Below, one piece after another: positions 1-31,888 of a stretch of DNA of 64,000 nt. The position numbers and the translations under genes were made by a program. The stretch lies in contig JBBDHU010000001.1 in the NCBI GenBank assembly GCA_040880705.1, forward strand, positions 315,573 to 379,572. Direction: 5' to 3'. The first letter of the stretch is position 1. Every line of letters starts with the position of its first letter. This DNA comes from Actinomycetota bacterium (GTDB lineage Bacteria; Actinomycetota; UBA4738; JBBDHU01). The notes beneath the pieces were generated by a model. That model did no database searches. It saw only the letters and a program-made list of their open reading frames with translations, and was not told the DNA's origin.

Positions 1-398
1 TTTCCCAGCAGGTCGGGTGTGGGGACGAAGATGTCGAAGTCGAGCTGCGCGCTCCTGATTTTCGCCAGCGCCTCGTCCGTGTTGTTGAAGGTGGATATCT
101 CCCAATTGATGTCGAAGTCCGCATATTTCTTCTTGAAGTCGTCCAGTACGGCCTTGTAGATGTACTGATCCCAGTTGTAGATCTTGAGGGTTGCCCCCTT
201 CTCGATCGGCAGATCGCTTGCGATCGGCTTGTTGTTGTCGTGAATCAGCCAACGAACCGGGCTGTCTCGCCGGGCGAGCGGGATGCTGGCGCCGGCGCCC
301 GAGGTGCCGGGCTTGCCGCAGGCCGCAAGGATCGCGCTGGCAAGCGGAACGCCTGCTGCAGTCGCCGCGGACCTACGGAGGAAATCACGGCGATTCAT
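1..398 (-). CDS. PotD/PotF-like polyamine-type ABC substrate-binding lipoprotein, 5' portion only (gene runs off the window start)
   Basis: Minus-strand ATG at 398..396 gives MNRRDFLRRSAATAAGVPLASAILAACGKP..., with a Tat RR motif and lipobox LAAC. Downstream DNA is roughly 75-80 percent identical to the 5' half of the complete paralog at 704..2044. Not in the ORF track because the window edge truncates it. Confidence 0.6.
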   Translation of the reverse strand, partial: MNRRDFLRRSAATAAGVPLASAILAACGKPGTSGAGASIPLARRDSPVRWLIHDNNKPIASDLPIEKGATLKIYNWDQYIYKAVLDDFKKKYADFDINWEISTFNNTDEALAKIRSAQLDFDIFVPTPDLLG

Positions 399-703
399 GC
401 GTCCGAAGCTCGGCTTCCAACGCGGGTGCGGTGCCATTCTCTCTCCCTTCAACCAGGACGGCCGGGTCATTGGTAGGCGGCCGTGAACGATTCCTAAGAA
501 TTCGCTGCTTCAATTATCACAAGCGACAAAGTACGCGCAACCCAACAAGGAGAGGCTCCGGACGAATCGCCTATCCCATGGGCTACCCACCCATGTTTCT
601 ACGGCAAGAGCCCTGTTTAGCCGTGGATTCCTCGATCGATGGTCGAGCACCGGACTAGGCAGGTCGAATTGGCCCGTGGCGGGTGGCTCCTGCCGCTCCG
701 ACT

Positions 704-2044
704 TCAGACCCCCGAGGCGAACCTCTCCCAGTTGTCGTGCCACATCGCGTCGACCTCGGGGCTGAGCCCGGTAAAGATCCACCCCTTGTCGAAGTCTTCT
801 GGAAGGACGATGGCGTTCTCGCCCAAGTGGGGCCAGTAGCAGACGATCCATCCCCATTTCCAGCCGCACTCGAGCAGCTCCTTCGGGTCGAGCTTCTGCT
901 GCGGCGGCTGGTAGCCCACCCAGCTGAAGTTCTTCATGGCGTGTTCGAACTCGAGTAAGTAGTCGAGGAATAGGTGTGCTAGGACGGGATTCCTCGCGTT
1001 CTTCAGGACGGCGACGAGGTCGTTTCCTATTAGCCCACGCTTGTCCTTCGGGTACCAGAACCCGAGGTCGGGGGCAGTGTGATAAGCGTTGGACTTCCCG
1101 TAGTAGGGAGCCGCGATGACGTCGCCCGACCAGGCTTGGTGCGCGGCGAAGACACCCCTCGGCAGCTGCTCGTAAGCGCCGTTGATCGTTAGTTGCACGT
1201 TGACCCTGTCGATCATTTCGATCAATGAGTCGGTTGCCCTCTCGACGACCGCCGGGTCGGTCGTGTTCAAGTCGACGCTGCCGGGGAACGTGCCGTCGTC
1301 GATCGCGTTCTTCATGATCCCGAAGTCGATGGCTTCGCTGTACACGTCGTACATACCTATCTTGCCCTTGTACTTGGGGTTCCAAAGAAGGTCATAGGGG
1401 TTCTTTCCCGCGTCCTCCAGCGCCGGTGGAGTGTCGCGCTCGTCGACGACGTCGCTCCTCCATTCGATCCCCGTTGTATAGACGGCATAGGGGACCGAGT
1501 ACCTCTGCCCCTGGTCGTAGTAAGGGTTCTCATCGCCCAGGAACTGCGGCCACAGCTCCTTGGTATGGGGCAGGTAGTCGTGATTCAGAGGCCGAATCAG
1601 CCTGAACTCGGTCAGTCGTCCGAGGAGGTCCGGGGTCGGGAAGAAGACGTCGAAGTCCACGTCGGTGCTACGGAGTTTCGCCTGAGCCTCGTCCAAGTTG
1701 TTGAACGTGGAGATCTCCCAGTCGACATCGTATTCCTCGTACTTCTTCGCGAAGTCGTCGAGGACCGCCTTGTAGATGTACTGGTCCCAGTTGTAGAGCT
1801 TCAGAGTCGCGCCCTTCTCGATGGGAAGGTCGCTCGGTATCGGCTTGTTGTCGTCGTAGATGGGCCATCTGACCGGCGAATCCTTCCTTGCGAGACGAAT
1901 GTTGGATCGTGGTCCGTTACCGGGCTTCCCGCATGCAGCGAGGATCGCGCTCGCCAGGGGGACGCCGGCCGCAGTTGCTGCCGATCGGCGGATGAAGTCG
2001 CGGCGATTGATCGGTTCCGGGCTCGGCTTCCAGCGGGGATGCAT
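704..2044 (-). CDS. Spermidine/putrescine-type ABC transporter substrate-binding lipoprotein (PotD/PotF family), Tat signal
   Basis: C-terminal 446 aa of the 867-aa minus ORF 704..3307. True start MHPRWKPSPEPINRRDFIRRSAATAAGVPLASAILAACGKP carries a twin-arginine motif plus lipobox. The body has PotD-like motifs (KLYNWDQYI, GYSVPY, WSGD). The N-terminal 421 aa of the tracked ORF is an antisense artefact over the crtI-like gene. Confidence 0.8.
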   Translation of the reverse strand: MHPRWKPSPEPINRRDFIRRSAATAAGVPLASAILAACGKPGNGPRSNIRLARKDSPVRWPIYDDNKPIPSDLPIEKGATLKLYNWDQYIYKAVLDDFAKKYEEYDVDWEISTFNNLDEAQAKLRSTDVDFDVFFPTPDLLGRLTEFRLIRPLNHDYLPHTKELWPQFLGDENPYYDQGQRYSVPYAVYTTGIEWRSDVVDERDTPPALEDAGKNPYDLLWNPKYKGKIGMYDVYSEAIDFGIMKNAIDDGTFPGSVDLNTTDPAVVERATDSLIEMIDRVNVQLTINGAYEQLPRGVFAAHQAWSGDVIAAPYYGKSNAYHTAPDLGFWYPKDKRGLIGNDLVAVLKNARNPVLAHLFLDYLLEFEHAMKNFSWVGYQPPQQKLDPKELLECGWKWGWIVCYWPHLGENAIVLPEDFDKGWIFTGLSPEVDAMWHDNWERFASGV

Positions 2045-2227
2045 ACGGGCTCCCTTCGCGCGTGCTCTGGCCGCTTTCTGGAACCAGCTAACAGAACGCG
2101 CCGCTCGGGCGCAACCCAGGGCACTTCCGCACGGGATCGCCGAAGGCTGCGTCGAGGGCGCGGCCGGTCGCGCGTTCGGCTTGTGGGGTATAACTTCTTC
2201 CTGTCCCGACCGAAGGATCATCCTTCC

Positions 2228-3850
2228 ATGCCGGCCAATATCTACGACGCCCTCATCGTCGGAGGAGGCCACAACGGCCTCATCTCGGGCGCCTACTTCG
2301 CACGCGCGGGCGCCAAGACCGTGGTCCTCGAGCGCCGGCACAAGACGGGCGGCGCCGCCGACACCAGTGCTCCGTTCGCCGATCATCCTGAGATCAACGT
2401 AACGACCTACTCGTACGTGATGAGCCTGATGCCCCCGACCATCATCAAGGAGCTCCAGCTCGAGAAGAACGGCTACGACGTGACCCCATTCGGGCCCTAC
2501 TACCAGGCCTACCCGGACGGGCGCTCGGTGAAGGTGTATCCCGACGACGCGAAGAAGAGCTACGACTCGATCGCGCAGTTTTCGAAGAAGGACGCCGAGA
2601 TCATGCCGAAGTGGGAGGAGTGGCTGGCCGGCGTGGCGGACGTCATGGGTCCTCTGCTTCTTCAGGTCCCTCCGAAGCTCGGCTCGATGAAGGTGGGAGA
2701 CCTGATCGAGAGCGCGAAGGTCGGATGGAAGATGCGCGGCCTGGGCGTGCGAGGCGTGGCCGACGTAACGCGGCTCTTCACGATGAGCGTCGCCGATCTC
2801 CTCGGCGATTGGTTCGAATCCGACCAGGTCAAGGGCATGCTCACGGTGAACGGCGTCATCGGAACCTGGGCAGGCCCCGAGGAGCCCGGCACGGCATACG
2901 TGATGCTGCATCACTCGATCGGAGACGTCGGCGACGGACACCTGGGAAGCTGGGGATTTCAGCAGGGCGGCATGGGCGGTGTCGCCGACGCATGCCGGAA
3001 GGCCGCGGAGTCGTTCGGCTGCGAGATCAGAACGAATTCCGGTGTCTCGAAGATCCTCACGGAGAACGGACGAGTCAAAGGAGTCGTTCTCGAGAATGGG
3101 GAGGAGCTTCGCGCGCCCACCATCGTGTCTACGATCCACCCTCAGATCGCTTTCCTCGATCTGATCGACAAGGAACAGCTGCCGGAGGAATTCGTCTGGG
3201 ACATCGAGCATTGGAAGACGCGAAGCGGCGTAGTGAAGGTGAACGTTGCCCTCTCCGAGCTGCCCGACTTCATCGCCGATCCCGGCAAGGAGATGCAGGA
3301 CATTCACACGGGTTCGGTCGAGCTCTGTTTCTCGCCCGAATACGCAGAGCGGGCGTTCCTGGACGCGAAAGAGGGACGTGCCGCCGAGCGGCCTTTCGTC
3401 GACGGGACCATCCCGACGACCCTCGACAAGAAGCTAGCTCCCGAGGGAGTGCATGTTTTCTCCATGTTCACGCAATGGGTTCCGCACTCGTGGGTCAAGG
3501 AGCCGCACCGCGACGAGCTGGAGGCATACGCCGACCGGATCATCGACATCTACTCGGAGCTGGCGCCGAACTTCAAGGGCGCGGTGATAGATCGGCAGGT
3601 GATCGGCCCCTACGACATGGAGCAAGACTTGGGGCTGATAGGCGGGAACATCTTCCAAGGGGAGTTGTCGGTCGATCAGCTTTTCCACATGCGTCCCTCA
3701 CCGGGCTACGCCGACTACCGAACACCGCTCAAAGGCCTCTATCACGGTTCGTCGGCGACACACGCCGGCGGCGGGGTCGTCGGCATCCCAGGCTGGCAGG
3801 CGTTTCGCCAGGCGAAGAAGGACCGGAAGGTGAAGAAGTCACGCGCCTGA
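2228..3850 (+). CDS. CrtI/phytoene-desaturase-family (COG1233, amine-oxidase fold) FAD-dependent oxidoreductase, paralog 1
   Basis: Start MPANIYDALIVGGGHNGLISGAYFARAGAKTVVLERRHKTGGAADT is a Rossmann FAD-binding GxGxxG motif. Conserved TYSYVMSLMPP, FSKKD and C-terminal LYHGSSATHAGGGV match the phytoene-dehydrogenase-related family. The 221-aa upstream extension in the ORF track overlaps potD and is not real. Confidence 0.8.
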   Translation: MPANIYDALIVGGGHNGLISGAYFARAGAKTVVLERRHKTGGAADTSAPFADHPEINVTTYSYVMSLMPPTIIKELQLEKNGYDVTPFGPYYQAYPDGRSVKVYPDDAKKSYDSIAQFSKKDAEIMPKWEEWLAGVADVMGPLLLQVPPKLGSMKVGDLIESAKVGWKMRGLGVRGVADVTRLFTMSVADLLGDWFESDQVKGMLTVNGVIGTWAGPEEPGTAYVMLHHSIGDVGDGHLGSWGFQQGGMGGVADACRKAAESFGCEIRTNSGVSKILTENGRVKGVVLENGEELRAPTIVSTIHPQIAFLDLIDKEQLPEEFVWDIEHWKTRSGVVKVNVALSELPDFIADPGKEMQDIHTGSVELCFSPEYAERAFLDAKEGRAAERPFVDGTIPTTLDKKLAPEGVHVFSMFTQWVPHSWVKEPHRDELEAYADRIIDIYSELAPNFKGAVIDRQVIGPYDMEQDLGLIGGNIFQGELSVDQLFHMRPSPGYADYRTPLKGLYHGSSATHAGGGVVGIPGWQAFRQAKKDRKVKKSRA

Positions 3851-3876
3851 CGCAAGGCAAGTCTTAGGAGCCCCCA

Positions 3877-5502
3877 TTGAGTGCTAATCAGTACGACGCG
3901 ATCGTGATCGGGGGCGGCCACAACGGTCTGTGCGCCGGCGCATACCTCGCGAAGAACGGCGCCAACGCCATAGTCCTGGAGAAGCGCCACAAAACCGGTG
4001 GCGCCGCCGACACCTCGGCCCCCTGGCCCGAGCACCCCGACTTCAAGGTCACGACCTATTCGTATGTCTCCGGGCTGATCCCTCCACGAGTCGTAAAGGC
4101 GCTTCAGCTGGAGAAGCACGGGTACAAGGTCCACCCTATGGGCCCCGTTTACCAAGCATGGCCCGACGGGCGTTCGATGATGTTTCAGTTGGGCAATGCC
4201 AAGGCAGGCAAGGACGAGATAGCGAAGTTCTCCAAGAAGGATTCCGAGGCGATCTTCGAATGGGAGGAATGGATCGGACGCATCGCCGACATCCTCGGGC
4301 CACTGCTCCTTTCCGTGCCGCCTAAGGTCGGCTCCAAGAGGCCCGGGGACGTTATCGACCAGGCGAAACTCGTGTGGCGGCTGCGAAAGGAGATCGACGT
4401 CCGCACGACTGCGCAGATCACCAAGCTAATGACGATGAGCCTCTCCGATCTCCTCGACGAGTGGTTCGAGTCGGATGAGATGAAGGGCGTGCTCGCGATC
4501 GACGGCGTGATTGGAACCTGGGCCGGGCCCGACGAGCCCGGAACGGCCTACGTCCTGGCACACCACGCGATCACCGATATTGGCGACGGCCTGCTCGGCA
4601 ACTGGGGATTCCCTGAAGGTGGCATGGGTGCCGTGGCCGATGCGTTCAGGCGTTCGGCCGAAGCGTTCGGATGCAGGATTCGAACCGAGGCCCCCGTAGA
4701 GAAGATCCTGATCGAGAACGGCAGGGCGAAGGGAGTCGTGCTTGCAGGCGGCGAGGAGCTTCGCGCGCCGGTCGTAGTTACGGCCTGCCACCCGCAAATC
4801 ACGTTCCTTCAGCAGATCGAACCCGAAGAGCTGCCGGACGATTTCGTTCGCGACATCGAGAAATGGAAATCGCGCAGCGGGACCGTGAAGATCAACCTGG
4901 CGCTTTCCGAACTGCCCAACTTCATAGCCGATCCCAACCCGCGCGACGGCAGCGTTCCGGAGCACCTGACGGGGTCGGTCGAGCTTTCGCTCTCTCCCAA
5001 GTACGTTGAACAGGCTTTCCAGGATGCGAAACAAGGGCGCGCGGCTACGGCGCCTTTCTCGGACGGGGTGATCCCGACGGTGATCGACAAGACGCTGGCA
5101 CCGGAAGGAGTTCACATCTTCTCGTTGTTCACACAGTGGTGTCCCCAGGAGTGGTCGACCGAGCCGCACACCGGCGAGCTGGAGGCCTACACCGACCGAA
5201 TCATCGACCTATACGACGGCCTGGCTCCCGGTTTCAAGGCCTCGGTCATCGCCCGTCAAACACTCGGCCCTCACGAGATGGAGGAGGAACTCGGCTTGAT
5301 CGGCGGCAACATATTCCACGGCGAACTCTCGGCCGATCAGCTCTTCCACATGCGCCCGGCGCCCGGTTTCGCGGACTTCCGTTCGCCGATCAAGGGTCTC
5401 TACCAAGCCCATTCCGGGACGCACGCCGGCGGAGGAGTGAATGGCATCCCCGCGTATCACGCGGTGCGCCAGATAAGAAAAGACAGAGCGCTAAAACGCT
5501 GA
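3877..5502 (+). CDS. CrtI/COG1233-family FAD-dependent oxidoreductase, paralog 2 (tandem to paralog 1)
   Basis: TTG start at 3877 preceded by AGGAG at 3866-3870. LSANQYDAIVIGGGHNGLCAGAYLAKNGANAIVLEKRHKTGGAADT. Colinear with paralog 1 over its full length. Confidence 0.8.
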   Translation: MSANQYDAIVIGGGHNGLCAGAYLAKNGANAIVLEKRHKTGGAADTSAPWPEHPDFKVTTYSYVSGLIPPRVVKALQLEKHGYKVHPMGPVYQAWPDGRSMMFQLGNAKAGKDEIAKFSKKDSEAIFEWEEWIGRIADILGPLLLSVPPKVGSKRPGDVIDQAKLVWRLRKEIDVRTTAQITKLMTMSLSDLLDEWFESDEMKGVLAIDGVIGTWAGPDEPGTAYVLAHHAITDIGDGLLGNWGFPEGGMGAVADAFRRSAEAFGCRIRTEAPVEKILIENGRAKGVVLAGGEELRAPVVVTACHPQITFLQQIEPEELPDDFVRDIEKWKSRSGTVKINLALSELPNFIADPNPRDGSVPEHLTGSVELSLSPKYVEQAFQDAKQGRAATAPFSDGVIPTVIDKTLAPEGVHIFSLFTQWCPQEWSTEPHTGELEAYTDRIIDLYDGLAPGFKASVIARQTLGPHEMEEELGLIGGNIFHGELSADQLFHMRPAPGFADFRSPIKGLYQAHSGTHAGGGVNGIPAYHAVRQIRKDRALKR

Positions 5503-5526
5503 GAACCGTTTGGTCTGCCTGAGAGA

Positions 5527-7623
5527 ATGACGACCGTGACCAGGGATGCCGTTGCAACGATGCTCGAGGCTCGCTCCGTCGCTGTAGTTGGGGCTAGCCC
5601 GCGCGAGGGCTCGTTCGGCGAGATGATGATGCTCGAACTCACCCGCGCCGGGTTCGACGGTGACATATACCCGGTCAACCCCAAGTACGAGGAGATCCTC
5701 GGTCACCGCGCCTATCCATCCGTTTCGGAGGTGCCTGTTTCCGTGGACATCGCGATCCTCGGCGTATCGAACTCGAGGATCGAGGGGGCGCTAACGGAGG
5801 CCGCCGATTCGGGGGCGCGATCGGCCGCGATATTCGCCAGTTGCTACGAGGATCCCAAGGACGGGGTTCCGCCTCTTACGGAGAGGCTGGCCAAGATCGC
5901 TCGTGATGCCGGCATGGCGGTTTGCGGGGGCAACTGCATGGGCTTTCTCAACATGGAGAACGGACTACGCGTGTGCGGTTACGTCGAGCCGGAACGTCCC
6001 GCCGGGAGCGTTGCATTCATTAGCCATTCCGGGTCGGCGTTTTCCGCAATGGCTTACAACAACCGCGATCTGGAGTTCAACCTGCTGGTGTCTGCAGGGC
6101 AGGAGCTGGTGACGACCGCGGCCGACTACATGACCTATGCGCTCGAGCGCGAAAGCACCAAGGCCGTTGGTTTGTTCATAGAGACGGTGCGCGACCCCGA
6201 CAAATTCCACCTCGCACTCGAGCGAGCGGCGGAGCGCGACATCCCGGTGGTTGCTTTGAAGGTCGGCCGCGAGGAAGGCGCTCGCGAGATGGTTCAGGCG
6301 CATTCCGGCGCTCTTGCCGGAGAGGACGGCGCGTACGAGGCGCTCTTCGACGCGTATGGGGTTCAGAGGGTCAACAGTCTCCACGAGATGTGTGACACCC
6401 TCGAGCTGTTCACGAGAAACGGCCGCCGTGCGGGTCCCGGCGCGTTCGCTTCGATCCACGACTCGGGCGGGGAGCGCGCACTGATGATCGATTCGGCGGC
6501 CGAAGTCGGCGTCCCTTTCGCGCAGATTTCCGATGAGACGAAAAAACGGCTGGAGGAGAGTTTGGAGGAAGGCCTCCCGGCGGTGAACCCTCTCGACGCA
6601 TGGGGGACCGTGGAGGAGGCCCGGCGAGTGTTCACGGAATGCATCGAGGTGCTGCTGGACGATCCCGACACCGCCGCGCTTGCCTTCGCGGTGGACATGA
6701 CGTCCGAGGACGACGAGGAATTCTCCAACGCGGCATTCGCCGAGCGCACACTCGTGGACCGGGACAAGCCGGTCGCCGTGCTGTCCAACCTCTCGAGCGC
6801 CATCCACGCTCCGGACGCGAAAAAGCTGCGGGAGATCGGGATCCCCGTTCTCGAGGACACATTGACCGGCCTGGCGGCGTTCAAGCATCTCTTCGACTAC
6901 CGGGACTTCCACGCGCGGCCGCCGGCCGGCAAGGCGGCTCTTCCGGGCGACGACACTCGATCGCGCTGGCGAGAGCGGCTCTCAACCGGCGAACCGCTAG
7001 CGGAGGTGGAGGGACTGTCTCTGCTTTCCGATTACGGGGTGCCCGTTGTCGGCGCCGAGCCCGCCGCTTCGGCCGAGGAGGCTAGAGCCGCAGCCGAAAA
7101 GGTTGGTTACCCCGTTGCCGTCAAGACGGCTGAGCCGGGAGTGCTGCACAAGTCGGACGCGGGGGGAGTGAAGCTGGGCCTTGAGACCGATGAAGATGTG
7201 TCAGCCGGGTATGAAGAGCTGGCGGCGAGTCTCGGCCCGAGGGTCGTGGTCGCGCCGATGGTGTCCCCCGGGGTTGAGTTCGCCCTCGGTGTCGTGCGCG
7301 ACCCGCAGTTCGGTCCGCTCGTGCTGGTGGCCGCCGGCGGGATATTCGTTGAACTCTTGAAGGATCGCCGGCTGGCGTTGCCCCCGGTCGACGAAGCGGG
7401 TGCGCGAAGGTTGTTGGATGGTTTGAAGACGCGCCCGCTGTTGGACGGGGTCAGGGGGGCGCCGTCCGCCGATATCGATTCGATCGCGCGTGCGATCGTC
7501 GCCGTTTCCTCACTCGCATCAGACTTGGGAGAGCATCTGGAGGCGCTCGACGCGAATCCGTTGATTGCGGGGCCGGACGGCTGCGTCGTGGTCGACGCGC
7601 TGGTCATCCCGCGGCGCGTCTAG
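5527..7623 (+). CDS. Acetate--CoA ligase (ADP-forming) / NDP-forming acyl-CoA synthetase family, CoA-binding plus ATP-grasp domains
   Basis: N-terminal CoA-binding domain (SVAVVGASPREGSFG...YPVNPKY...GGNCMG). C-terminal ATP-grasp (GYPVAVKTAEPGVLHKSDAGGVKLGL). 698 aa. Follows the two crtI-like genes with a 24-nt gap. Confidence 0.75.
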   Translation: MTTVTRDAVATMLEARSVAVVGASPREGSFGEMMMLELTRAGFDGDIYPVNPKYEEILGHRAYPSVSEVPVSVDIAILGVSNSRIEGALTEAADSGARSAAIFASCYEDPKDGVPPLTERLAKIARDAGMAVCGGNCMGFLNMENGLRVCGYVEPERPAGSVAFISHSGSAFSAMAYNNRDLEFNLLVSAGQELVTTAADYMTYALERESTKAVGLFIETVRDPDKFHLALERAAERDIPVVALKVGREEGAREMVQAHSGALAGEDGAYEALFDAYGVQRVNSLHEMCDTLELFTRNGRRAGPGAFASIHDSGGERALMIDSAAEVGVPFAQISDETKKRLEESLEEGLPAVNPLDAWGTVEEARRVFTECIEVLLDDPDTAALAFAVDMTSEDDEEFSNAAFAERTLVDRDKPVAVLSNLSSAIHAPDAKKLREIGIPVLEDTLTGLAAFKHLFDYRDFHARPPAGKAALPGDDTRSRWRERLSTGEPLAEVEGLSLLSDYGVPVVGAEPAASAEEARAAAEKVGYPVAVKTAEPGVLHKSDAGGVKLGLETDEDVSAGYEELAASLGPRVVVAPMVSPGVEFALGVVRDPQFGPLVLVAAGGIFVELLKDRRLALPPVDEAGARRLLDGLKTRPLLDGVRGAPSADIDSIARAIVAVSSLASDLGEHLEALDANPLIAGPDGCVVVDALVIPRRV

Positions 7624-8012
7624 GCTGGCTTCAAGCTCGAGATGACTCCGAGGACGTCGCCGACGTCTCCCAAGCTTTCCCGCTCGGGTTCCGCGATCGC
7701 CAGGGAGTCGGCGAGTTCCCGTAGCGGCGCGAGGATCGGCCTGTAAAAGGCCCATCGCCCTCTCTTCTCCCGTTCGAGAAGGCCGGCGTCCTGCAGCACC
7801 TTGAGGTGGTGGCTCACCGTGGGCTGCGACAGCCCGAGTGGCCCCGTGAGCTGGCAAACGCAGGCCTCACCGGCACGCGTAATAAGACTGAGGGCCCGAA
7901 GCCGGGCCGGGTCTGCGAGGACCTGCATGGCCGAGGCCATCTTCCCCGCCGCCTCGGCGCTCATCGGAGCTCCGAGCGGGGTGCAGCAGTCGATCATTGG
8001 CAGGGGCTTCAT
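7620..8012 (-). CDS. ArsR/SmtB-family metalloregulatory transcription factor
   Basis: HTH signature LSQPTVSHHLKVLQDAGLL. N-terminal Cys pair (MIDCCTPL) and CVCQL, typical of metal-sensing sites. Start taken at MKPLP (ATG 8012..8010); the tracked ORF extends 12 codons further upstream into an AT-rich stretch. 4-bp convergent overlap with the acyl-CoA synthetase gene. Confidence 0.75.
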   Translation of the reverse strand: MKPLPMIDCCTPLGAPMSAEAAGKMASAMQVLADPARLRALSLITRAGEACVCQLTGPLGLSQPTVSHHLKVLQDAGLLEREKRGRWAFYRPILAPLRELADSLAIAEPERESLGDVGDVLGVISSLKPA

Positions 8013-8060
8013 ATTGACATCTATCGATAGAATATCGTAGAAATACATCGATGTACGTCG
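8013..8060. promoter_or_regulatory. AT-rich operator/promoter region with two perfect palindromes sharing an ATCGAT core, immediately upstream of arsR
   Basis: CTATCGATAG (8021-8030) and TACATCGATGTA (8044-8055) are perfect inverted repeats in an unusually AT-rich patch containing TTGACA. Paired palindromes in the ArsR gene's own promoter are the standard autoregulatory arrangement for this family. Confidence 0.35.
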
Positions 8061-8148
8061 ATTTCCGGCAAGAAAAGGGAGGTGACCGCTGTGGAGCCGT
8101 GCTGCCCACCTGACAGCTGCCCGCCCGACTGCTGCTGAGGACGAGGCG

Positions 8149-9324
8149 CTAGGCCGGCCAGTCGGTATAGATCCCGGCCCCGCGTTTCTTCAGCTCGTTT
8201 CCTATGACGAGACGCTGGATCTCGGACGTGCCCTCCCAGATTCGGTCGACGCGGATCTCGCGCCATAGGCGCTCGACCGGCTGCTCGCGCATGTAGCCGC
8301 GGCCGCCGAAGATCTGCACGGCGTCGTCGGTGACCCTGCCTGCCGTCTCGGAGCAGACGAGCTTCACCGCGGATGCCAGGGCGTGGATCTCTTTGCGATC
8401 GGCCTCCGTCCGGGAAGCCTGCATCCCCGCGCGGTACAGGAGAGATTTCGCGGCCATGATTCCCGCGGCCATGTCAGCAAGCATGAACTCGATCCCCTGA
8501 AAATCGATTATCGGTTCGCCGAATTGCACGCGCGTCTTAGCGAACTCCAAAGAGAGATCGAGGGCACGCGTCGCCGCGCCCACCGTTCGCGCGCCGATCA
8601 TCAGTCGCTCCTCCACGAACCAGTCCTTCGTTAGCTCGTAGCCGCGGCCAATTCCACCAAGGACCTTGTCTTCTCCGACGCGGACGCCGTCGAACTCGAA
8701 GATCGGATGCTCGAAGTAAGCCGTGTGCGTGTACTTGGGCGTGCGAACCTCTCGGATTCCGGGCAGGTCCTTGTCGACCAGGAATATCGTCGCCTTGCCG
8801 GGATCGCCGTCAACATGTGCATGAACCAAGATGAAGTCGGCTATGTCGCCGGCGGTCACGTGCCACTTGGTCCCGGTGATGACCCAATAGTTCCCGTCCC
8901 TCGTCGCAGTGGTCTTGATCATCGTGGGATCCGAGCCTGCATCTTCTTCCGTGATCGCGTAGCAGTCCCGTCGATCACCTCGGCAGGCGGGTCGCAGATA
9001 TTCCTCTTTTTGTTTGTCAGTGCCCTCGGCAAGAACGTTCGAAGGGTGCCAGGGGATCGCCCATAGGCAGTTGGTTGCCTTCCCCAGCTCCTCCTCGATC
9101 AGGATCTGCTGGAAGGTGCTCAGTCCCTGCCCGCCCTCCTGTTTGGAATGGTTGATCGCGTTCAGTCCGTAGCCGGGGACGGCTCGCCGGATCGTCTGAA
9201 TGCTGGTTTCGGACAGCCCGCCGTTCTCCTCGCATTCCTGTTCGTACGGAAAGAGGTACTTCTCCGTGAACTCCCGGGCCCGCTTCTTGAGTTCCCGGTC
9301 GGCTTCACTCAGTTGCAGGTCCAC
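8149..9324 (-). CDS. Acyl-CoA dehydrogenase
   Basis: Full ACAD architecture, with the active-site region YMREQPVERLWREIRVDRIWEGTSEIQRLVIG. Start placed at GTG (VDLQLSEADRELKKRAREF), which is preceded by GAGGAGA. ACADs canonically begin MDFxLSEEQ. Confidence 0.8.
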   Translation of the reverse strand: MDLQLSEADRELKKRAREFTEKYLFPYEQECEENGGLSETSIQTIRRAVPGYGLNAINHSKQEGGQGLSTFQQILIEEELGKATNCLWAIPWHPSNVLAEGTDKQKEEYLRPACRGDRRDCYAITEEDAGSDPTMIKTTATRDGNYWVITGTKWHVTAGDIADFILVHAHVDGDPGKATIFLVDKDLPGIREVRTPKYTHTAYFEHPIFEFDGVRVGEDKVLGGIGRGYELTKDWFVEERLMIGARTVGAATRALDLSLEFAKTRVQFGEPIIDFQGIEFMLADMAAGIMAAKSLLYRAGMQASRTEADRKEIHALASAVKLVCSETAGRVTDDAVQIFGGRGYMREQPVERLWREIRVDRIWEGTSEIQRLVIGNELKKRGAGIYTDWPA

Positions 9325-9376
9325 TGCGGTTCTCCTCGCCTTGTGGTACTTGTGACGCATCCTAATTGGAGGCGTT

Positions 9377-9898: not shown

Positions 9899-11185
9899 CT
9901 AGGCTTTTTCCGCGTGCTGGAGGAACCGCTGCCACTCCGATTGCCAAAGAGCGTCGGTCTCGGGATCGAGCGGGAGCAGCATCTGCGACCGCTCGAACTG
10001 TTCGGGCGTGATCAACTCGGATCGCTCGAAGGGACCGTGCATCCTTACTTCATCACCGTTAAGGGTCGCGTGATAGGGGCACTCGACCCACGGTTGCTCG
10101 CACTTCAGGAGAGCGGGAGTCTCTCCGATCCCTTTCAGCGGAGGCTGGTACCCGTTCCACATGAAATTCTCAACGGCCACGTTTGAATCGAGCAGGTAGT
10201 TGACGAACGCGTGGGCCAGGACGGGATTGCTTCCTCCCGGGAGGATTGAGGTTAGGTCGTTGCCGACGATCCCATCCCCGTCGCTCGGCCAGAAAAAGTA
10301 AGGGGGGGAGTGGCTGCTTTTTCCCACGCGCGGCGACGAATAGACATCTCCCGACCATGACTGAGCCACGTCGATCCCTGCAGGGAGTCCATAGTATGCG
10401 GCTTCCGGGGTGACAAGTCTTGGGCCTAGCCGGATAAGGTCGTCGGTCGCCCGTCTGAGCGAGCCTACATCGTTTGTATTGATATCAGCTGCTCCGTTAC
10501 GCAGTAGTGCCATCCCGATGGCCTCCCGATATTCGTTCAGAACGGCGGCACCGTTCTTGTAGCGCCAAAACACGTCGTATGGGCCGTTCGCAAAGGGTTG
10601 CTCGGGAGGGATACTGGCCAGCTCGTCCCGGATCAAGATCCCGGTTCCGTAAACTGTGTAAGGAACCGAGTATCTCTGCCCCAAGTCGTAAAATGGCGCG
10701 CCTCGCCGCGTAAAAGACGTCCAGAGGTTCCCTAGGTTTGGCAAATATTCGTGATTTAGAGGCCGCAGCTCCTTCGACTGGACGAGCTCGCCCAATACTT
10801 CGACAGTGGGAAAGAACACGTCGAAGTCCCGCTGGGCTCCGCGGATTCCCGCAACCCCCTCTTGGATCGTCTCGTAGTTCTTGACCTCGTACGAGACGTC
10901 GAACTTCTTCGCAAAACTCTCCAGGACGTCCTCGTAGAGGTACTCCCGCCATTGATAGACCTTGAGCGTCGCGCCCTTCTCGATCTCGAGGCCGCTCGCG
11001 ATCGGAGGGTTGTCTCCGTAGATCGGCCAGGTGACGGGATTTTCCTTGCGAACCAGGGGGATCGAAGACGTCCTTGGTTTAGGCCTGGTCGGGGAGCACG
11101 CAGCGAGCAGCGACCCGCCCAGCGATAGGCCGGCGGCCGCCGCCGCCGATGACCTCAGGAACTCGCGCCGGGAAAGGGATCGCAT
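9899..11185 (-). CDS. PotD/PotF-like polyamine-type ABC substrate-binding lipoprotein (third paralog), Tat signal
   Basis: MRSLSRREFLRSSAAAAAGLSLGGSLLAACSPT (RR motif plus lipobox). Body colinear with the 704..2044 protein (KVYQWREYLYEDVLESFAKKFDVSYEV, GYSVPY, WSGDV). The 36-aa upstream extension in the track was ignored. Confidence 0.8.
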   Translation of the reverse strand: MRSLSRREFLRSSAAAAAGLSLGGSLLAACSPTRPKPRTSSIPLVRKENPVTWPIYGDNPPIASGLEIEKGATLKVYQWREYLYEDVLESFAKKFDVSYEVKNYETIQEGVAGIRGAQRDFDVFFPTVEVLGELVQSKELRPLNHEYLPNLGNLWTSFTRRGAPFYDLGQRYSVPYTVYGTGILIRDELASIPPEQPFANGPYDVFWRYKNGAAVLNEYREAIGMALLRNGAADINTNDVGSLRRATDDLIRLGPRLVTPEAAYYGLPAGIDVAQSWSGDVYSSPRVGKSSHSPPYFFWPSDGDGIVGNDLTSILPGGSNPVLAHAFVNYLLDSNVAVENFMWNGYQPPLKGIGETPALLKCEQPWVECPYHATLNGDEVRMHGPFERSELITPEQFERSQMLLPLDPETDALWQSEWQRFLQHAEKA

Positions 11186-11293
11186 TCGATGTCCATCTTG
11201 AGATGTGTGGGCCGGTTGGGCAACGGGTATCCCCCTGACCAGCGCACCTAAAGTTTTCGGCCTATTTCTGCCGATACCTAAAACTAGGTACAT

Positions 11294-12538
11294 ATGGTCT
11301 CGACCCTCGCACGTGCTCGGATAAGGCTCCCAGGCAAGCTGGCCGGCATGTTCTTGCTGGCCTCCGGGATCCTCACGATCGTCACCCTTCCGCTGGCCGC
11401 CGCGGACCTGAACGTCCCCGGAACGGCAGCCGTCGGCGTGGCGGCCGTCGCCCTCGGCGTCCTTGCCTGGGTTCTCCCCTGGGACCGCTGGCCGCGATCG
11501 GCAACGCTGGCCCTGGTTCCCCCGGCCTTCGTTCTGATTGCCCTAGGGAACCTGTTCGGAGGATCCGACGTGCACCTCTACGGCATCTTTTTCGTACTCG
11601 CGTTCGTTTGGCTCGGGGTTGCGCACCCGCCGCGCCGCTCGCTCATGGCCGCGCCGCTCGCTGCCATCGCGTACGTCGTCCCGCTCTTCTTCCTCCCGGG
11701 CGATATCGCATCCGGAGTGGGATCGGCAATCGTGACGGTCGGGGTGTGCGTCCTGGTAGGCGAAACGCTTGCCTGGTCGCGGCGCCGCGTTTCGGAGACC
11801 GAGCGCCTGTTGAAAGCGGAGCATTTGCAGACGGAGCACTTCAAGGAGCTGGATGAAATGAAACGAACGGTCCTTCACGCCGTGTCTCACGAGCTTCGCA
11901 CGCCCGTTTCCTCGATCCTGGGTTACTCGGTCACGCTCCAGCGCCAGGGCGAGGACTTGGGTTCTCCGCAAAGGCGGGAGATCGCCACCCGCATGGCGTT
12001 CCAATCGCGAAAGCTGCTTCAGATGCTCGAGGACTTGCTGGACCTCGACCGCATCGATCAGGGTCTCCTCGAGCCGAATCGCGAACCGGTCGACGTGGGC
12101 GCGCTGACCGCCCGGGTCGTTCGCGAGCTCGACGTCCTGCGAGGGCGAGACGTTCGAATGCAGATCCTTCCGATCGTGGAGTCCGTCGACGCGGTGAAGG
12201 TCGAGCGGATCGTGACGAACCTCCTTACCAACACGGCCAGGCACACGCCGCTGGATTCGGTTATCTGGGTGCGCGTTGTGCCGGCGGACGGCGGAGCCGA
12301 AGTCGCCGTCGAGGACAACGGTCCAGGAGTCCCTGCGGAGCTCCGCGAAGCGGTGTTCGAGCCATTCCGGCGAGCCGACTACGCGGAGGGCTCGAGCGGT
12401 TACGGAATCGGGCTGTCGATAGTCGCGCGCTTCGCCGAGCTTCACGGCGGCCGGGCTTGGGTCGAGGACCGGCCGGGCGGTGGCGCGTCCTTCAGGGTCG
12501 TCTTGCCGGGCCCGCCCGCTATGGCGCTGGGTGCCTGA
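11294..12538 (+). CDS. Membrane sensor histidine kinase (HisKA + HATPase_c), orphan
   Basis: About four N-terminal TM helices. H-box VSHELRTPVSS. C-terminal GYGIGLSIVARFAELHGGRAWVEDRPGGGASFRVVLP. No response regulator adjacent. Confidence 0.7.
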   Translation: MVSTLARARIRLPGKLAGMFLLASGILTIVTLPLAAADLNVPGTAAVGVAAVALGVLAWVLPWDRWPRSATLALVPPAFVLIALGNLFGGSDVHLYGIFFVLAFVWLGVAHPPRRSLMAAPLAAIAYVVPLFFLPGDIASGVGSAIVTVGVCVLVGETLAWSRRRVSETERLLKAEHLQTEHFKELDEMKRTVLHAVSHELRTPVSSILGYSVTLQRQGEDLGSPQRREIATRMAFQSRKLLQMLEDLLDLDRIDQGLLEPNREPVDVGALTARVVRELDVLRGRDVRMQILPIVESVDAVKVERIVTNLLTNTARHTPLDSVIWVRVVPADGGAEVAVEDNGPGVPAELREAVFEPFRRADYAEGSSGYGIGLSIVARFAELHGGRAWVEDRPGGGASFRVVLPGPPAMALGA

Positions 12539-12588: not shown

Positions 12589-14211
12589 ATGCCGGACGAG
12601 CGAATCTACGACGTGATCGTCGTCGGCGGGGGTCACAACGGCCTGACCTGCGCCGCCTACCTGGCGCGCGCCGGGCTGAGCGTCCTGGTTCTGGAGCGCC
12701 GCGATGTCTTGGGCGGAGCGGCCGTAACCGAGGAGCCGTGGCCCGGATACCACGTGTCCAGCGCCTCGTATGTCGTGAGCCTCATGCCGAAAAGGATCGT
12801 CGACGAACTCTCGCTGAAGCGCTACGGCTACAGGGTTTCCCTTATCTCGCCCGACTACTTCGTTCCCTTCCCCGACGGATCCTCGATCACCTTCTGGGGC
12901 GATATGGAGCGAGACCAGGCCGAGATCGCCAAGTTCTCGAAGAAGGACGCCGAGGCATTCGCGGGGTTCGACGAGTATCTGGAACGGATAGGCCACCTCC
13001 TTCACGACCTGCAATTCGTGATTCCCCCGAACCTTCGCCTTCAGGATCTGCCGAAATGGGGATCGCTCGCCGGCAGGTTCCGGAACTGGACCGGGCGGGA
13101 CATCGCGGAAGTAATCCGGCTCTTCACGATCAGCGCATCCGACCTGCTCGACACCTGGTTCGAGGACGATCGCGTGAAGGGGGCGCTGGCCACCCAATGC
13201 GTGATCGGTTCATGGAACGGGCCGATGAGCCCGGGGTCCGCCTACGTTCTGCTTCACCATTGGGTCGGGGAAGTGGACGGGCAAGCCGGGGCGTGGGGAT
13301 GGGTCTACGGCGGCATGGGGGCGCTCAGCTGGTCGATCGCCCAGTCGGCGAAAGCGTCGGGGGCGCGGATAAGGACCGACGCTCCGGTCAAGCGCATCAT
13401 CGTTGCGGGCGGCCGGGCCACGGGTGTCGAACTGGAGAACGGCGAGGGCATTCGCGCGCGACGTGTCGTATCGAACGCCCATCCGGTGCTCACATACCTA
13501 GACATGGTCGGCGAGGAGCACCTCCCCGCCCAGGTCGTCGGCGACATCAAGAGGTATCGCACACGCTCGGGATCGGTGAAGGTCAATCTCGGCCTCTCGA
13601 AGCTGCCACTTCCTTCGGCGATGGGAGAGGATGCTGGCAACGTCCACAAAGGCCTCATGGCGATATCTCCATCGATCGAATACCTGGAAAAAGCGTGGGA
13701 CGACGCGAAATACGGCGGCATGTCGAAGCATCCTTACGTCGAGGCGGTGTTCCCGACCGCGCACGAGTCCGAGATCGCCCCCAAGGGCAAGCACATCGCC
13801 CTCGCGTTCTGCCAGTTCGCCGCCTACGACCTGAAACGAGGCAAGTGGGAAAAGGAACGCGAGAAGTTCGGCAAGAGAGTTATAGAAACGATCGGCGAGT
13901 ACTGTCCGGGATTCGAGGACACCGTCGAACACATCGAAGTTCTGGGGCCGCGAGATCTGGAAGAGCAGTTCGGGCTCGTCGGTGGAAGCATCTTCCACGG
14001 CGAACTCGCTCCAGACCAGCTGTTCATGCTCCGGCCGATCCCGGGATACGCCGACTACCGCACCCCGGTCGCCGGCCTTTACCTTTGCGGCAGCGGGACG
14101 CACCCGGGGGGCGGGGTAATGAGCGTCCCGGGATACAACGCCTCCAGGGTCGTATTGCGCGACTTCAAGCGAGGGCAACTCGTCGACAAGGTGCTCGACT
14201 TCGGGCGCTAG
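12589..14211 (+). CDS. CrtI/COG1233-family FAD-dependent oxidoreductase, paralog 3 (most divergent copy)
   Basis: MPDERIYDVIVVGGGHNGLTCAAYLARAGLSVLVLERRDVLGGAAVTEE. Has SYVVSLMP, FSKKDAEAF and C-terminal LYLCGSGTHPGGGV. Confidence 0.8.
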   Translation: MPDERIYDVIVVGGGHNGLTCAAYLARAGLSVLVLERRDVLGGAAVTEEPWPGYHVSSASYVVSLMPKRIVDELSLKRYGYRVSLISPDYFVPFPDGSSITFWGDMERDQAEIAKFSKKDAEAFAGFDEYLERIGHLLHDLQFVIPPNLRLQDLPKWGSLAGRFRNWTGRDIAEVIRLFTISASDLLDTWFEDDRVKGALATQCVIGSWNGPMSPGSAYVLLHHWVGEVDGQAGAWGWVYGGMGALSWSIAQSAKASGARIRTDAPVKRIIVAGGRATGVELENGEGIRARRVVSNAHPVLTYLDMVGEEHLPAQVVGDIKRYRTRSGSVKVNLGLSKLPLPSAMGEDAGNVHKGLMAISPSIEYLEKAWDDAKYGGMSKHPYVEAVFPTAHESEIAPKGKHIALAFCQFAAYDLKRGKWEKEREKFGKRVIETIGEYCPGFEDTVEHIEVLGPRDLEEQFGLVGGSIFHGELAPDQLFMLRPIPGYADYRTPVAGLYLCGSGTHPGGGVMSVPGYNASRVVLRDFKRGQLVDKVLDFGR

Positions 14212-14260: not shown

Positions 14261-15394
14261 ATGGCCGTAGAACCCAGGGAAGTAACCGATCGTGCTCGCT
14301 CCGAATGGCGTCCCAAGGCGACGCTGCCCGGAGACGCCTACCACCGGCCTGAAGTGTGGGAGCGCGAGAAGGAGCTGATCTTCCAGGCAGCGTGGTACTG
14401 CGTCGGTCGCGAGGAGGAGATCGCCGAGCCGGGCGACTTCATGGTGCGAGACGTCGCCGGGGAGGGCGTGCTGCTTGCTCGCGCGAAGGGCGAGAAGCTC
14501 AGAGCCTTCTACAACGTGTGCCGCCATCGCGGAACGCGGCTCTGCGACGGTGAGGGGCACGCGAAATCCAACGTGTTCGTCTGTCCCTATCACGCGTGGA
14601 CTTACGACACCGCCGGGAACCTTCTCGGCACTCCGAACGTTCACGAGGACGAAGGGTTCGACAGATCGTCCAACTCTCTTTGGCAGATGGCGGTAGAAGT
14701 ACAGGACGGATTCATCTACGTGAACATGTCGAGCGACCCGGAAACTCTGGGCGACTTCCTCTCACGCAACCCCGAAGGCGATCCCGCGGAACACACCCGC
14801 TGGGGATTGGACGAACTTCGTCTCGGTCACCGCATCGACTACGAGGTCGCCGCGAACTGGAAGATCATTCTCGAGAACTACAACGAGTGCCTGCATTGCC
14901 CGAGCATCCATCCGGAACTCGTGAGCCTCGTTCCGCTGTTCAAGAAGGGCCTTGTCGAGGGCGAGCGCGGGGCTGAGCTGGTGCACGGCGCACAGACGCT
15001 GTCCATGGATGGGACGACCAACCGCCCGCCCTTTCCGAGCCTCGAGCCCGAGGACTGCCGTGTTTACTTCGGCATGACGGTGTTCCCGACCTTCATGATC
15101 AACTACCAGCCGGACTACGTGATGACCTACCGGCTCGAACCTAGGGATCCGCTCAACACCTTGGTCATAAGCGAGTTCCTATTTCGCCCCGAGGTCATCG
15201 AGTCGGCGGATTTCGATCCCTCGGGTGTCGTTGACTTCTGGGATCTGGTCAGCCGCCAGGATTGGTCGGTGTGCGAACGGGCGCAAAAGGGTGTTCGCTC
15301 GCGCGCGTTTTCCAAGGGCGGGGTCTTCCCCTTCAACGACCGGTGGGTGCACGAATTCAACCGGCGCTATCGGGAGTCGATGGACGAGGGCTAG
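14261..15394 (+). CDS. Rieske [2Fe-2S] non-heme-iron oxygenase alpha subunit (GbcA / CntA / stachydrine-demethylase-like)
   Basis: Rieske motif CRHRGTRLC...CPYHAW, followed by a mononuclear-iron catalytic domain (NYNECLHCPSIHPEL). 377 aa. Confidence 0.8.
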   Translation: MAVEPREVTDRARSEWRPKATLPGDAYHRPEVWEREKELIFQAAWYCVGREEEIAEPGDFMVRDVAGEGVLLARAKGEKLRAFYNVCRHRGTRLCDGEGHAKSNVFVCPYHAWTYDTAGNLLGTPNVHEDEGFDRSSNSLWQMAVEVQDGFIYVNMSSDPETLGDFLSRNPEGDPAEHTRWGLDELRLGHRIDYEVAANWKIILENYNECLHCPSIHPELVSLVPLFKKGLVEGERGAELVHGAQTLSMDGTTNRPPFPSLEPEDCRVYFGMTVFPTFMINYQPDYVMTYRLEPRDPLNTLVISEFLFRPEVIESADFDPSGVVDFWDLVSRQDWSVCERAQKGVRSRAFSKGGVFPFNDRWVHEFNRRYRESMDEG

Positions 15395-18184: not shown

Positions 18185-18194
18185 GCTGGCCGCG

Positions 18195-21966: not shown

Positions 21967-22010
21967 GGGAACATGGATTCCATCCGGGCAACGAGATTAC
22001 AGGAGGTTCC

Positions 22011-24916: not shown

Positions 24917-24930
24917 CACCCGGGCGAGGT

Positions 24931-26148: not shown

Positions 26149-26177
26149 GACGGGGGAGTCTACGGGGCCCCGGCCGG

Positions 26178-26206
26178 TTGACCGGGGCCGGGGAGCCGCG
26201 TAAACT
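26178..26206 (+). promoter_or_regulatory. Putative sigma70-type promoter of the ilvB leader (TTGACC, 17-nt spacer, TAAACT)
   Basis: TTGACC 26178-26183, 17-nt spacer, TAAACT 26201-26206. The same geometry and -10 box occur upstream of the leuA leader. Confidence 0.4.
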
Positions 26207-26217
26207 TGCTGGTTACG

Positions 26218-31881: not shown

Positions 31882-31888
31882 AACCGGG

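Follow-up and report, generated by a model that had tools for sequence, protein, structure and literature searches.

PYROXD2-like flavoproteins and an ADP-forming acyl-CoA synthetase in a putative amine-catabolic module of an Actinomycetota bacterium

The stretch of DNA analysed here (the window) comprises 64,000 nucleotides of contig JBBDHU010000001.1 from an Actinomycetota bacterium (assembly GCA_040880705.1), with a G+C content of about 64%. Close to its left end, two adjacent paralogous flavoprotein genes, FP1 and FP2, are followed on the same strand by a gene for an ADP-forming acyl-coenzyme A (CoA) synthetase, and the three are transcribed divergently from genes for substrate-binding lipoproteins of ATP-binding cassette (ABC) importers. 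The flavoproteins resemble the mitochondrial protein PYROXD2, and the synthetase belongs to the ACD superfamily. From these relationships and from the genes that accompany the pair in other genomes, we favour, with moderate confidence, a catabolic module for an imported cationic amine, probably N-methylated or of polyamine type, which has the flavoproteins and the synthetase at its core. The features of this segment are as follows (FAD, flavin adenine dinucleotide; Tat, twin-arginine translocation).

2228–3850, plus strand: FP1, PYROXD2-like FAD flavoprotein, ATG start, 540 aa
3877–5502, plus strand: FP2, paralogue of FP1, TTG start, 541 aa
5527–7623, plus strand: ADP-forming (ACD-superfamily) acyl-CoA synthetase, ATG start, 698 aa
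2045–2227, no strand: intergenic region of 183 nt between the divergent starts, presumably with both promoters
704–2044, minus strand: PotD/F-like ABC substrate-binding Tat lipoprotein, 446 aa, SBP_bac_8/SBP_bac_1, twin-arginine motif RRDFIRR and lipobox LAAC
3–437, minus strand: second PotD/F-like Tat lipoprotein, truncated by the window edge to its N-terminal part, twin-arginine motif RRDFLRR and lipobox LAAC
7620–8048, minus strand: ArsR/SmtB-family regulator, convergent with the synthetase gene and overlapping its end by 4 nt
8149–9360, minus strand: acyl-CoA dehydrogenase (ACAD), four ACAD domains, start at 9360 or 9324
9899–11293, minus strand: third PotD-like Tat binding protein, 42% identical to the 704–2044 protein

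The intergenic gaps are 26 nt between FP1 and FP2 and 24 nt between FP2 and the synthetase gene, and an AGGAG sequence lies 6 nt 5' of the FP2 start. The original prediction for this DNA had the same tandem pair with a gap of 27 nt, which is one too many; its TTG start for FP2 after AGGAG, its 698-aa synthetase with CoA-binding and ATP-grasp domains 24 nt further on, and its divergent tandem PotD/PotF-like Tat lipoproteins all agree with the present analysis. So does its acyl-CoA dehydrogenase at 8149–9324, found on the minus strand at the shorter of the two possible lengths. No match to the sigma-70 consensus was seen in 2045–2227, where inverted repeats are weak, and a promoter and terminator scan of 1900–8200 gave nothing above shuffled expectation. 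The designation of FP1, FP2 and the synthetase gene as a three-gene operon is therefore based on gene spacing and conserved synteny.

FP1 and FP2 are 63% identical from end to end. Pfam recognises in them only an N-terminal Rossmann motif of the FAD/NAD type and, in part, the Amino_oxidase domain, and a FAD-binding GGGHNG motif occupies residues 12–17. Both match the CrtO and CrtI-family models over their full length, below threshold. On the CrtO equivalog NF045689 (cut-off 1000 bits), FP1 and FP2 score 215–240 bits, and the five paralogues found in the window, FP1–FP5, score 215–265 bits; on the CrtI family TIGR02734 (cut-off 238 bits), FP1, FP2 and FP3 score 78, 82 and 146 bits, respectively. 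Mouse PYROXD2 is likewise below the cut-off of the CrtO model, at 276 bits. In pairwise comparison, FP1 is 37% identical to mouse PYROXD2 (355 bits), FP2 is 38% identical to gibbon PYROXD2 (358 bits), and FP3, the closest of the five to PYROXD2, is 41% identical to the mouse protein (395 bits, E 6e-136). By comparison, the identity between FP1 and FP3 themselves is 43%. The alignments of FP1, FP2 and FP3 with PYROXD2 are full-length and collinear (about 98% coverage, E 1e-120 to 1e-136), with invariant columns common to the bacterial flavoproteins and PYROXD2. These comparisons were run with database sequences; a human PYROXD2 sequence is 97–98% identical to the primate entries of that name. 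As the pairwise scores exceed those on the CrtO model, FP1 and FP2 are, on sequence similarity, better named PYROXD2-like than CrtI-like. The label CrtI-like, which was originally given to them, is correct for the CrtI/CrtO-superfamily fold, but the nearest informative relative is PYROXD2 (37–41% identity over the full length). 'Phytoene dehydrogenase-like' labels are misleading for this flavoprotein clade.

PYROXD2 and the bacterial flavoproteins share the N-terminal GxGHNGL FAD motif and a C-terminal block, GGNIFHG...DQL...RP...GLY..GS..HPGGGV. They differ in that PYROXD2 is mitochondrial and carries an N-terminal extension, whereas the bacterial proteins are cytoplasmic, occur in multiple copies and are coupled to a CoA ligase or to GcvT-family proteins. 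A Foldseek search with a predicted model of FP2 (12-sequence alignment, pLDDT, the predicted local distance difference test score, of 66; used for fold class only) had 4rep, 3ka7 and 4dgk as its top matches, with CrtD/CrtI first and then the flavin amine oxidases NicA2, MAO and putrescine oxidase. Sequence searches of solved structures with the flavoprotein gave weak CrtI and MAO matches only. The family is very large (at least 8000 candidates in a homologue search), and hundreds of soil-metagenome homologues from Actinomycetota, Dormibacterota and Acidobacteriota, 65–67% identical, carry generic names only.

Both sides of the PYROXD2 comparison have a link to methylated amines, through human genetics for PYROXD2 and through gene context for the bacterial proteins. 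Variants at the PYROXD2 locus are associated with trimethylamine and dimethylamine (PMC3169529), and very strongly with N6-methyl-lysine, N6,N6-dimethyl-lysine and N2-acetyl-N6,N6-dimethyl-lysine (PMC9730628, PMC13352909). Biallelic PYROXD2 variants cause a mitochondrial disorder (PMC8777681). No paper assigning a reaction to PYROXD2 was found in the open-access literature.

The synthetase has CoA_binding_2 (PF13380), Succ_CoA_lig (PF13607) and ATP-grasp_5 (PF13549) domains, all above cut-off. Among solved structures it is most similar to 8wzu, an ADP-forming 4-hydroxybutyrate-CoA ligase (262 bits), followed by 9y43, a 3-hydroxypropionate-CoA ligase (255 bits), and 7cm9, the ATP-dependent dimethylsulfoniopropionate (DMSP) lyase DddX (249 bits). 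DddX first couples DMSP to CoA and then releases dimethyl sulfide, leaving acryloyl-CoA; its signature residues are His292, the phosphohistidine, Trp391, which makes a cation-pi contact with the sulfonium, and Glu/Asp432, the base (PMC8163506). In the alignment, which is ambiguous around position 432, these correspond to His259, Trp359 and Glu398 of the window synthetase. Across 57 flavoprotein-linked synthetase orthologues, the His of the phospho-His loop AHSGALAG (His259) is kept in 57/57 and the Trp391 equivalent also in 57/57; two Nitrosopumilus (thaumarchaeal) ligases have Val or Gly there. At the position of Glu432, 46 of the 57 have Asp or Glu. At the position of Phe435 there is a Tyr at or near the site in 51/57, and the window protein has Asn (residue 401) or a gap, depending on the alignment. 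With the variable region 330–420 as the query, DddX was the only ACD-family structure recovered, weakly.

The likeness to DddX thus extends from the fused CoA-binding, ligase and ATP-grasp architecture, which aligns from end to end, to the positions of the phospho-His, the cation-pi Trp and the acidic base. DddX-type chemistry would yield acryloyl-CoA, and an AcrC-like ACAD is encoded nearby. The two differ in that the window synthetase resembles the 3-hydroxypropionate and 4-hydroxybutyrate ligases of Nitrosopumilus just as closely, and in setting: soil Actinomycetota with a PotD-like importer here, as opposed to marine bacteria with a BCCT transporter and dddB/dddC. From the conserved residues, the synthetase probably binds a short acid with a cationic group, and it is possible that it acts as a ligase-lyase, with a DddX-like elimination releasing acryloyl-CoA. 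Thus the original statement that the enzyme activates an acid is sustained by its ACD-type CoA ligase domains but may be incomplete, as the retained DddX signature residues suggest that it may do more. The Asn at residue 401, together with the extra flavoprotein copy, may point to a shifted substrate in this lineage. For the synthetase running in reverse, from acetyl-CoA to acetate and ATP, no supporting context was found, and this was rejected.

A scan of GTDB species representatives returned 80 related loci. Their open reading frames (ORFs) were labelled by BLAST against the window proteins and by unbiased clustering of GC3-filtered ORFs (GC3, G+C content at third codon positions). The synthetase gene is directly downstream of a flavoprotein gene on the same strand in 59 of the 68 evaluable loci (53 by a distance rule and six with truncated ORFs seen in the same listing). 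The flavoprotein-then-synthetase cassette is widely conserved among soil bacteria of the Actinomycetota, Dormibacterota and Acidobacteriota. All 38 loci that extend for 8 kb or more on each side contain the synthetase; 35 of them have an orthologous ACAD, 30 a divergent TetR, about 20 PotD-like ABC components, 19 GcvT and 17 a Rieske protein. Among the 62 loci of at least 12 kb, GcvT, a GbcA-like Rieske protein or a SoxB-like DAO flavoprotein occurs in 44, a PotD-like binding protein in 32, any amine marker (aminotransferase included) in 52, and electron-transfer flavoprotein (ETF) genes in nine. Other recurrent neighbours are a Tat-secreted phosphoesterase of phospholipase-C type, ETF alpha and beta with an Fe-S ETF oxidoreductase, an amidase, an EutQ-like cupin and an aldehyde dehydrogenase. 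No paper on the cassette was found in the open-access literature, nor one on a flavoprotein of the PYROXD2 type with an ACD-type ligase or GcvT proteins as its partner. The BetI-like TetR that lies divergently upstream of the flavoprotein in 30/38 loci is missing from the window, which has the ArsR/SmtB-type regulator instead. One locus with a flavoprotein-synthetase pair 65% identical to the bacterial pairs is labelled as a Candidatus Micrarchaeia archaeon metagenome-assembled genome (L025); this label is probably a binning error, or the result of a recent transfer.

A single flavoprotein precedes the synthetase in 53/62 of the longer loci and two copies are present in 9/62. FP1 is 60–80% identical to the synthetase-preceding flavoprotein of related loci and is the copy closest to that orthologue; FP2 is 77% identical to the second copy in L002. 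The FP1/FP2 duplication is common to one related metagenome lineage (L002/L003), in which the copies are separated by a TetR gene and another gene. Thus, with two copies in so few loci and with the copies of L002/L003 apart, the tandem arrangement appears to be a local, lineage-specific duplication and not a defining feature of the cassette.

The nine non-adjacent loci of the 68 include two recurrent architectures. In L004, L008 and L010 the order is flavoprotein, Rieske, cupin, GcvT, and two synthetases, an ACAD, an enoyl-CoA hydratase and a PotD-like transporter are just upstream. The other architecture, in L070, is a flavoprotein with two GcvT genes behind it. The cluster of the cultured Mycobacterium sp. 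2YAF39 has a GbcA-like Rieske protein, a SoxB-like oxidase, a TetR with BetI as its sole family match, and an aldehyde dehydrogenase that scores 613.7 bits on the aminobutyraldehyde dehydrogenase model, 1.3 under the cut-off of 615; further along, this cluster also encodes a second ACAD, an enoyl-CoA hydratase and a thiolase. Orthologous clusters also carry a class-III aminotransferase. Homologues on plasmids of cultured Alphaproteobacteria are 37–40% identical to FP1 and 40–42% identical to mouse PYROXD2. On a Shinella sumterensis plasmid, the genes run enoyl-CoA hydratase, acetate-CoA-ligase-family protein, 3-hydroxyacyl-CoA dehydrogenase, flavoprotein, GcvT and, further along, a 3-keto-5-aminohexanoate-cleavage-family protein. 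On a Fuscovulum ytuae plasmid, a divergent TetR accompanies an aminotransferase, the flavoprotein, a second COG1233 flavoprotein (FP', 31% identical to FP1), an aminomethyltransferase, two Rieske subunits and a polyamine-type ABC transporter.

The importer genes of the window are completed in another assembly of the same locus (L001), which has the whole second binding protein (448 aa) and two permeases upstream. The only NCBIfam matches of the 704–2044 protein are PotF (63 bits, cut-off 636) and PotD (51 bits, cut-off 582), both below cut-off. Its 22 matches among solved structures are all putrescine-, spermidine- or polyamine-binding proteins, except 4gl0, a structural-genomics entry with no functional name. 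In 17/62 loci (L006, L007, L011–L017 and others), an opposite-strand Tat phosphoesterase of the phospholipase-C/acid-phosphatase family and a 280-aa lipoprotein come right after the synthetase. These stand in place of the ABC importer, which hints that the substrate there could be a phospholipid head-group amine. The ACAD at 8149–9360 has orthologues in related loci that are 64–75% identical. Its top NCBIfam model is the acryloyl-CoA reductase AcrC, at 243 bits and far below cut-off; by sequence, this match is compatible with a DddX-like elimination and is not diagnostic of it.

The remaining PYROXD2-like paralogues of the window are found in two further gene groups.

12589–14211, plus strand: FP3, a more distant paralogue, 43% identical to FP1
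14261–15394, plus strand: GbcA-like Rieske oxygenase alpha subunit, Rieske and Ring_hydroxyl_A domains; GbcA is the top NCBIfam model, at 184 bits and below cut-off
15417–16565, plus strand: GcvT-family folate-binding aminomethyltransferase, GCV_T and GCV_T_C domains; the best NCBIfam model is the C-terminal part (folate domain) of trimethylamine N-oxide demethylase
16568–18184, plus strand: FP4, GTG start 2 nt past the GcvT stop
18147–19583, plus strand: class-III aminotransferase by Pfam and NCBIfam, start uncertain
52852–54456, plus strand: FP5, likely start at Met35 of the listed ORF
54428–55648 and 55512–56834, plus strand: two tandem GcvT-family proteins directly after FP5, 62% identical to each other

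FP1, FP2, FP4 and FP5 are mutually 54–63% identical (FP4 to FP1 and FP2, 56–59%; FP5 to FP1, FP2 and FP4, 54–62%), and FP3 is about 43% identical to the rest. The gene order in the first group is FP3, Rieske, GcvT, FP4, class-III aminotransferase, and in the second FP5, GcvT, GcvT, which is repeated in the related locus L070. Three of the five paralogues, FP3, FP4 and FP5, are therefore linked to GcvT or Rieske genes of N-demethylation, and FP5-GcvT-GcvT could be an N-demethylase of a novel type, made of a flavoprotein and folate proteins. A few kb upstream of FP5, at 47656–49989 on the plus strand, is a gene for a 777-aa fusion protein in which an APH-type kinase domain is joined to a domain of class-III aminotransferase fold. 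Such an architecture is the one predicted for an amino-alcohol kinase paired with a phospho-lyase, for example an ethanolamine or hydroxylysine kinase with the matching phospho-lyase. An AsnC regulator (51178–51675) and a metallophosphoesterase (51738–52835) lie between the fusion and FP5.

The conserved neighbours of the flavoproteins concern hydrophilic amines (polyamine-type importer, class-III aminotransferase, aminobutyraldehyde dehydrogenase, BetI-like repressor, GbcA-like Rieske, SoxB-like, GcvT and ETF proteins), and PYROXD2 points to N-methylated alkylamines. FP1 and FP2 are therefore read as flavin dehydrogenases or oxidases acting on C-N bonds. The scheme that follows is inferential in four respects: which kind of bond is oxidised, what the substrate is, in what order the reactions occur, and whether there is lyase activity. 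The PotD/F-like ABC system would import the amine and the flavoprotein would oxidise the C-N bond of an N-alkyl group, most likely an N-methyl group or a polyamine-type secondary or tertiary amine. Where a paralogue adjoins GcvT, the one-carbon (C1) unit would be passed to tetrahydrofolate. The resulting omega-ammonio carboxylate would be bound by the synthetase through the conserved Trp, by a cation-pi contact, and would be converted to a CoA thioester by way of phospho-His259; the same enzyme might also eliminate the onium group in the manner of DddX, giving acryloyl- or enoyl-CoA. The CoA product would then be processed by the neighbouring ACAD, and in other genomes by enoyl-CoA hydratase and thiolase as well. 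The order of import, oxidation and activation was part of the original prediction, and the set of importer, flavoprotein, ligase and ACAD on which that order was built is indeed conserved across loci.

Several observations weigh against this reading. C-N oxidation is argued from gene context and human genetics, and in the characterised members of the superfamily (CrtI, CrtO, CtmAB) it is C-H or C-C bonds adjacent to double bonds that are oxidised; the flavoproteins may instead desaturate or hydroxylate an acid or a CoA ester. The product of a flavin amine oxidase is an aldehyde and not an acid, and an aldehyde dehydrogenase is present in 9/62 loci only and did not turn up among the ORFs scanned from 1 to 28 kb in the window. 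The similarity of the binding protein to PotD/F is weak (63 bits against a cut-off of 636), and the structural model of FP2 is mediocre. The identity of the synthetase to DddX, 28.6%, does not discriminate it from the 4-hydroxybutyrate ligase, at 26.4%. The Glu432/Phe435 loop, where the window protein has Asn, is ambiguously aligned, and the Trp is absent from the Shinella synthetase (36% identical).

Two other amine pathways have to be weighed against this scheme. If the imported compound were a classical polyamine (putrescine, spermidine, cadaverine or agmatine), as was originally proposed, FP1 and FP2 would be polyamine oxidases or dehydrogenases, and the derived acid (4-aminobutyrate, beta-alanine or an N-carboxyethyl amine) would enter beta-oxidation-like steps as its CoA thioester. 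This is considered rather unlikely. The binding protein, with PotD, PotF and SpuD/E as its only named solved relatives and PotF/PotD as its only family matches, would suit such a substrate, as would the carboxynorspermidine-synthase-like gene at 24931–26340, the aminotransferase of the orthologous clusters and the near-threshold aminobutyraldehyde dehydrogenase of Mycobacterium sp. 2YAF39, and the nearest relatives of the synthetase use C3/C4 omega-substituted acids. However, an aminotransferase and an aldehyde dehydrogenase already complete the route from putrescine to 4-aminobutyrate without a flavoprotein and a synthetase, and the C1 and N-demethylation genes of 44/62 loci are needless for unmethylated polyamines. 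The BetI-like regulator and the tie of the human homologue to methylated amines likewise argue against it. Thus the importer, aminotransferase and aldehyde dehydrogenase of the orthologous clusters make a polyamine substrate plausible, but the GcvT, Rieske, SoxB and BetI neighbours point to methylated or onium amines at least as strongly as the other genes point to plain polyamines.

The same neighbours fit a route in which the synthetase ligates a trimethylammonio- or dimethylsulfonio-alkanoate (gamma-butyrobetaine, beta-alanine betaine or DMSP) to CoA. The thioester would be cleaved in DddX style to acryloyl-CoA, or would undergo beta-oxidation by ACAD, enoyl-CoA hydratase and thiolase to betainyl-CoA and glycine betaine, and Rieske, SoxB-like, GcvT and flavoprotein enzymes would then demethylate the product. 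Besides the conserved DddX signature residues, the BetI-like regulator, the GbcA-like Rieske protein and the ETF genes of nine loci, this draws on the ACAD, with acryloyl-CoA reductase as its top model; there are also sub-threshold matches to the crotonobetainyl-CoA dehydrogenase and hydratase models, and enoyl-CoA hydratase and thiolase genes are in the Mycobacterium locus. In Shinella, the synthetase and flavoprotein stand with genes of the 3-hydroxyacyl-CoA/carnitine-dehydrogenase type and of the 3-keto-5-aminohexanoate-cleavage family. We nevertheless regard an onium acid as an improbable starting substrate: none of the family-model scores comes near its cut-off, the importer resembles PotD/F and not the OpuAC or BCCT type usual for betaines, the class-III aminotransferases imply primary amines, DMSP is no obvious soil substrate, and the scheme leaves the flavoprotein step undefined.

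A role on lipophilic compounds has far less in its favour. FP1 and FP2 would here be desaturases, ketolases or saturases of a polyene or isoprenoid acid, perhaps as a heterodimer like CtmAB, and the acid product would be activated with CoA as in monoterpene degradation. There is precedent for this, in that tandem COG1233 pairs are known for limonene and sterol side chains, followed by CoA activation (PMC4109377, PMC11061730). The full-length similarity to the CrtO model and the CrtD/CrtI-like fold are consistent with it, and with CtmAB and the sterol delta-24 desaturase the window shares adjacent paralogous CrtI-superfamily flavoproteins, a presumably catabolic and non-carotenoid role, and probable downstream CoA activation of the product. 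In those enzymes, however, the subunits are about 27% identical and carry covalent flavin mononucleotide (FMN), attached at a His within the motif G-F-L/R-x-N/S-T/L-H-A (PMC11061730); a regular-expression search, which included a relaxed form, found this motif in none of FP1–FP5. An obligate heterodimer of the CtmAB type was therefore rejected, since the motif is absent, FP1 and FP2 are 63% identical and 53/62 related loci have a single copy, so that the side-by-side pair is not conserved. The cut-offs of the CrtO and CrtI-family models are missed by far, Pfam scans showed no ferredoxin partner gene next to the operon, and the neighbours are those of hydrophilic amines. Pfam scans of about 50 ORFs across the window contained no phytoene/squalene synthase, polyprenyl synthase or lycopene cyclase domain, in line with the earlier statement that crtB, crtE and crtY are lacking there, and the annotated recurrent neighbour families of about 60 related loci included no carotenoid genes. 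A carotenoid role for FP1 and FP2, which had already been called unlikely, is rejected on these scores and this context, and we regard the wider isoprenoid role as very improbable.

The preferred reading, oxidation of a C-N bond in an imported cationic amine, has parallels in the N-demethylases of dimethylglycine/sarcosine oxidase type and in GbcAB, the Rieske demethylase of glycine betaine. As in those systems, a flavoprotein stands beside a stand-alone GcvT (FP3/FP4, FP5, Shinella, Fuscovulum and L070), and a GbcA-like Rieske protein is found in the same clusters. However, the flavoprotein of dimethylglycine and sarcosine oxidases is of the DAO family, whereas here it is of PYROXD2/CrtO type, and FP1 and FP2 adjoin a CoA ligase and not GcvT. 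With respect to the open-access literature, demethylases of flavoprotein plus GcvT are known with DAO-family flavoproteins, and what is new is a hitherto undescribed combination of known superfamilies in an amine catabolic cluster.

More tentatively, the flavoproteins of the window may be the bacterial counterparts of human PYROXD2, and the PYROXD2-type family as a whole may consist of unrecognised flavin N-alkyl (N-methyl) amine dehydrogenases that work with GcvT proteins or with a DddX-like CoA ligase. If so, soil bacteria would have a widespread CoA-dependent degradation route for methylated or onium amines, and the members paired with GcvT would be a new type of N-demethylase. The bacterial context would also predict the reaction of PYROXD2, in which free methyl-lysines and related amines would be oxidised with loss of methyl groups or methylamines. 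This human mitochondrial flavoprotein is linked to disease and has some of the strongest metabolite associations on record; tractable bacterial homologues of about 40% identity, in amine clusters of Actinomycetota and Alphaproteobacteria, provide an independent hypothesis for its function. This link and the breadth of the distribution of the cassette are the main interest of the locus. The two genes are currently annotated as 'NAD(P)/FAD-dependent oxidoreductase' and 'acetate--CoA ligase family protein', and the cassette may be a common and overlooked route of organic-nitrogen turnover. If the synthetase is a ligase-lyase of the DddX type, reactions known for DMSP in the sea would also operate on nitrogen compounds on land.

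Other genes of the window are as follows. A histidine kinase at 11294–12538 has no adjacent response regulator. At 58984–63914, the gene for a GMC (choline-dehydrogenase-type) oxidoreductase, on the minus strand, comes before those for an ABC ATPase and a fused double permease, possibly another amine or amino-alcohol module. Right after the amine gene island, at 21876–36226, is a block for branched-chain amino-acid biosynthesis, with genes for dihydroxy-acid dehydratase, a threonine-synthase-like pyridoxal-phosphate (PLP) enzyme, the large and small subunits of acetolactate synthase, two LeuA-like proteins and isopropylmalate dehydrogenase; embedded in it on the minus strand is the saccharopine-dehydrogenase/carboxynorspermidine-synthase-like gene mentioned above. 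At 19580–21966, on the minus strand, a threonine/serine-dehydratase-like PLP enzyme adjoins a DAO flavoprotein with 'putative aminophosphonate oxidoreductase' as its best model (373 bits, cut-off 633). This pair, followed by ilvD, recurs in L002/L003.

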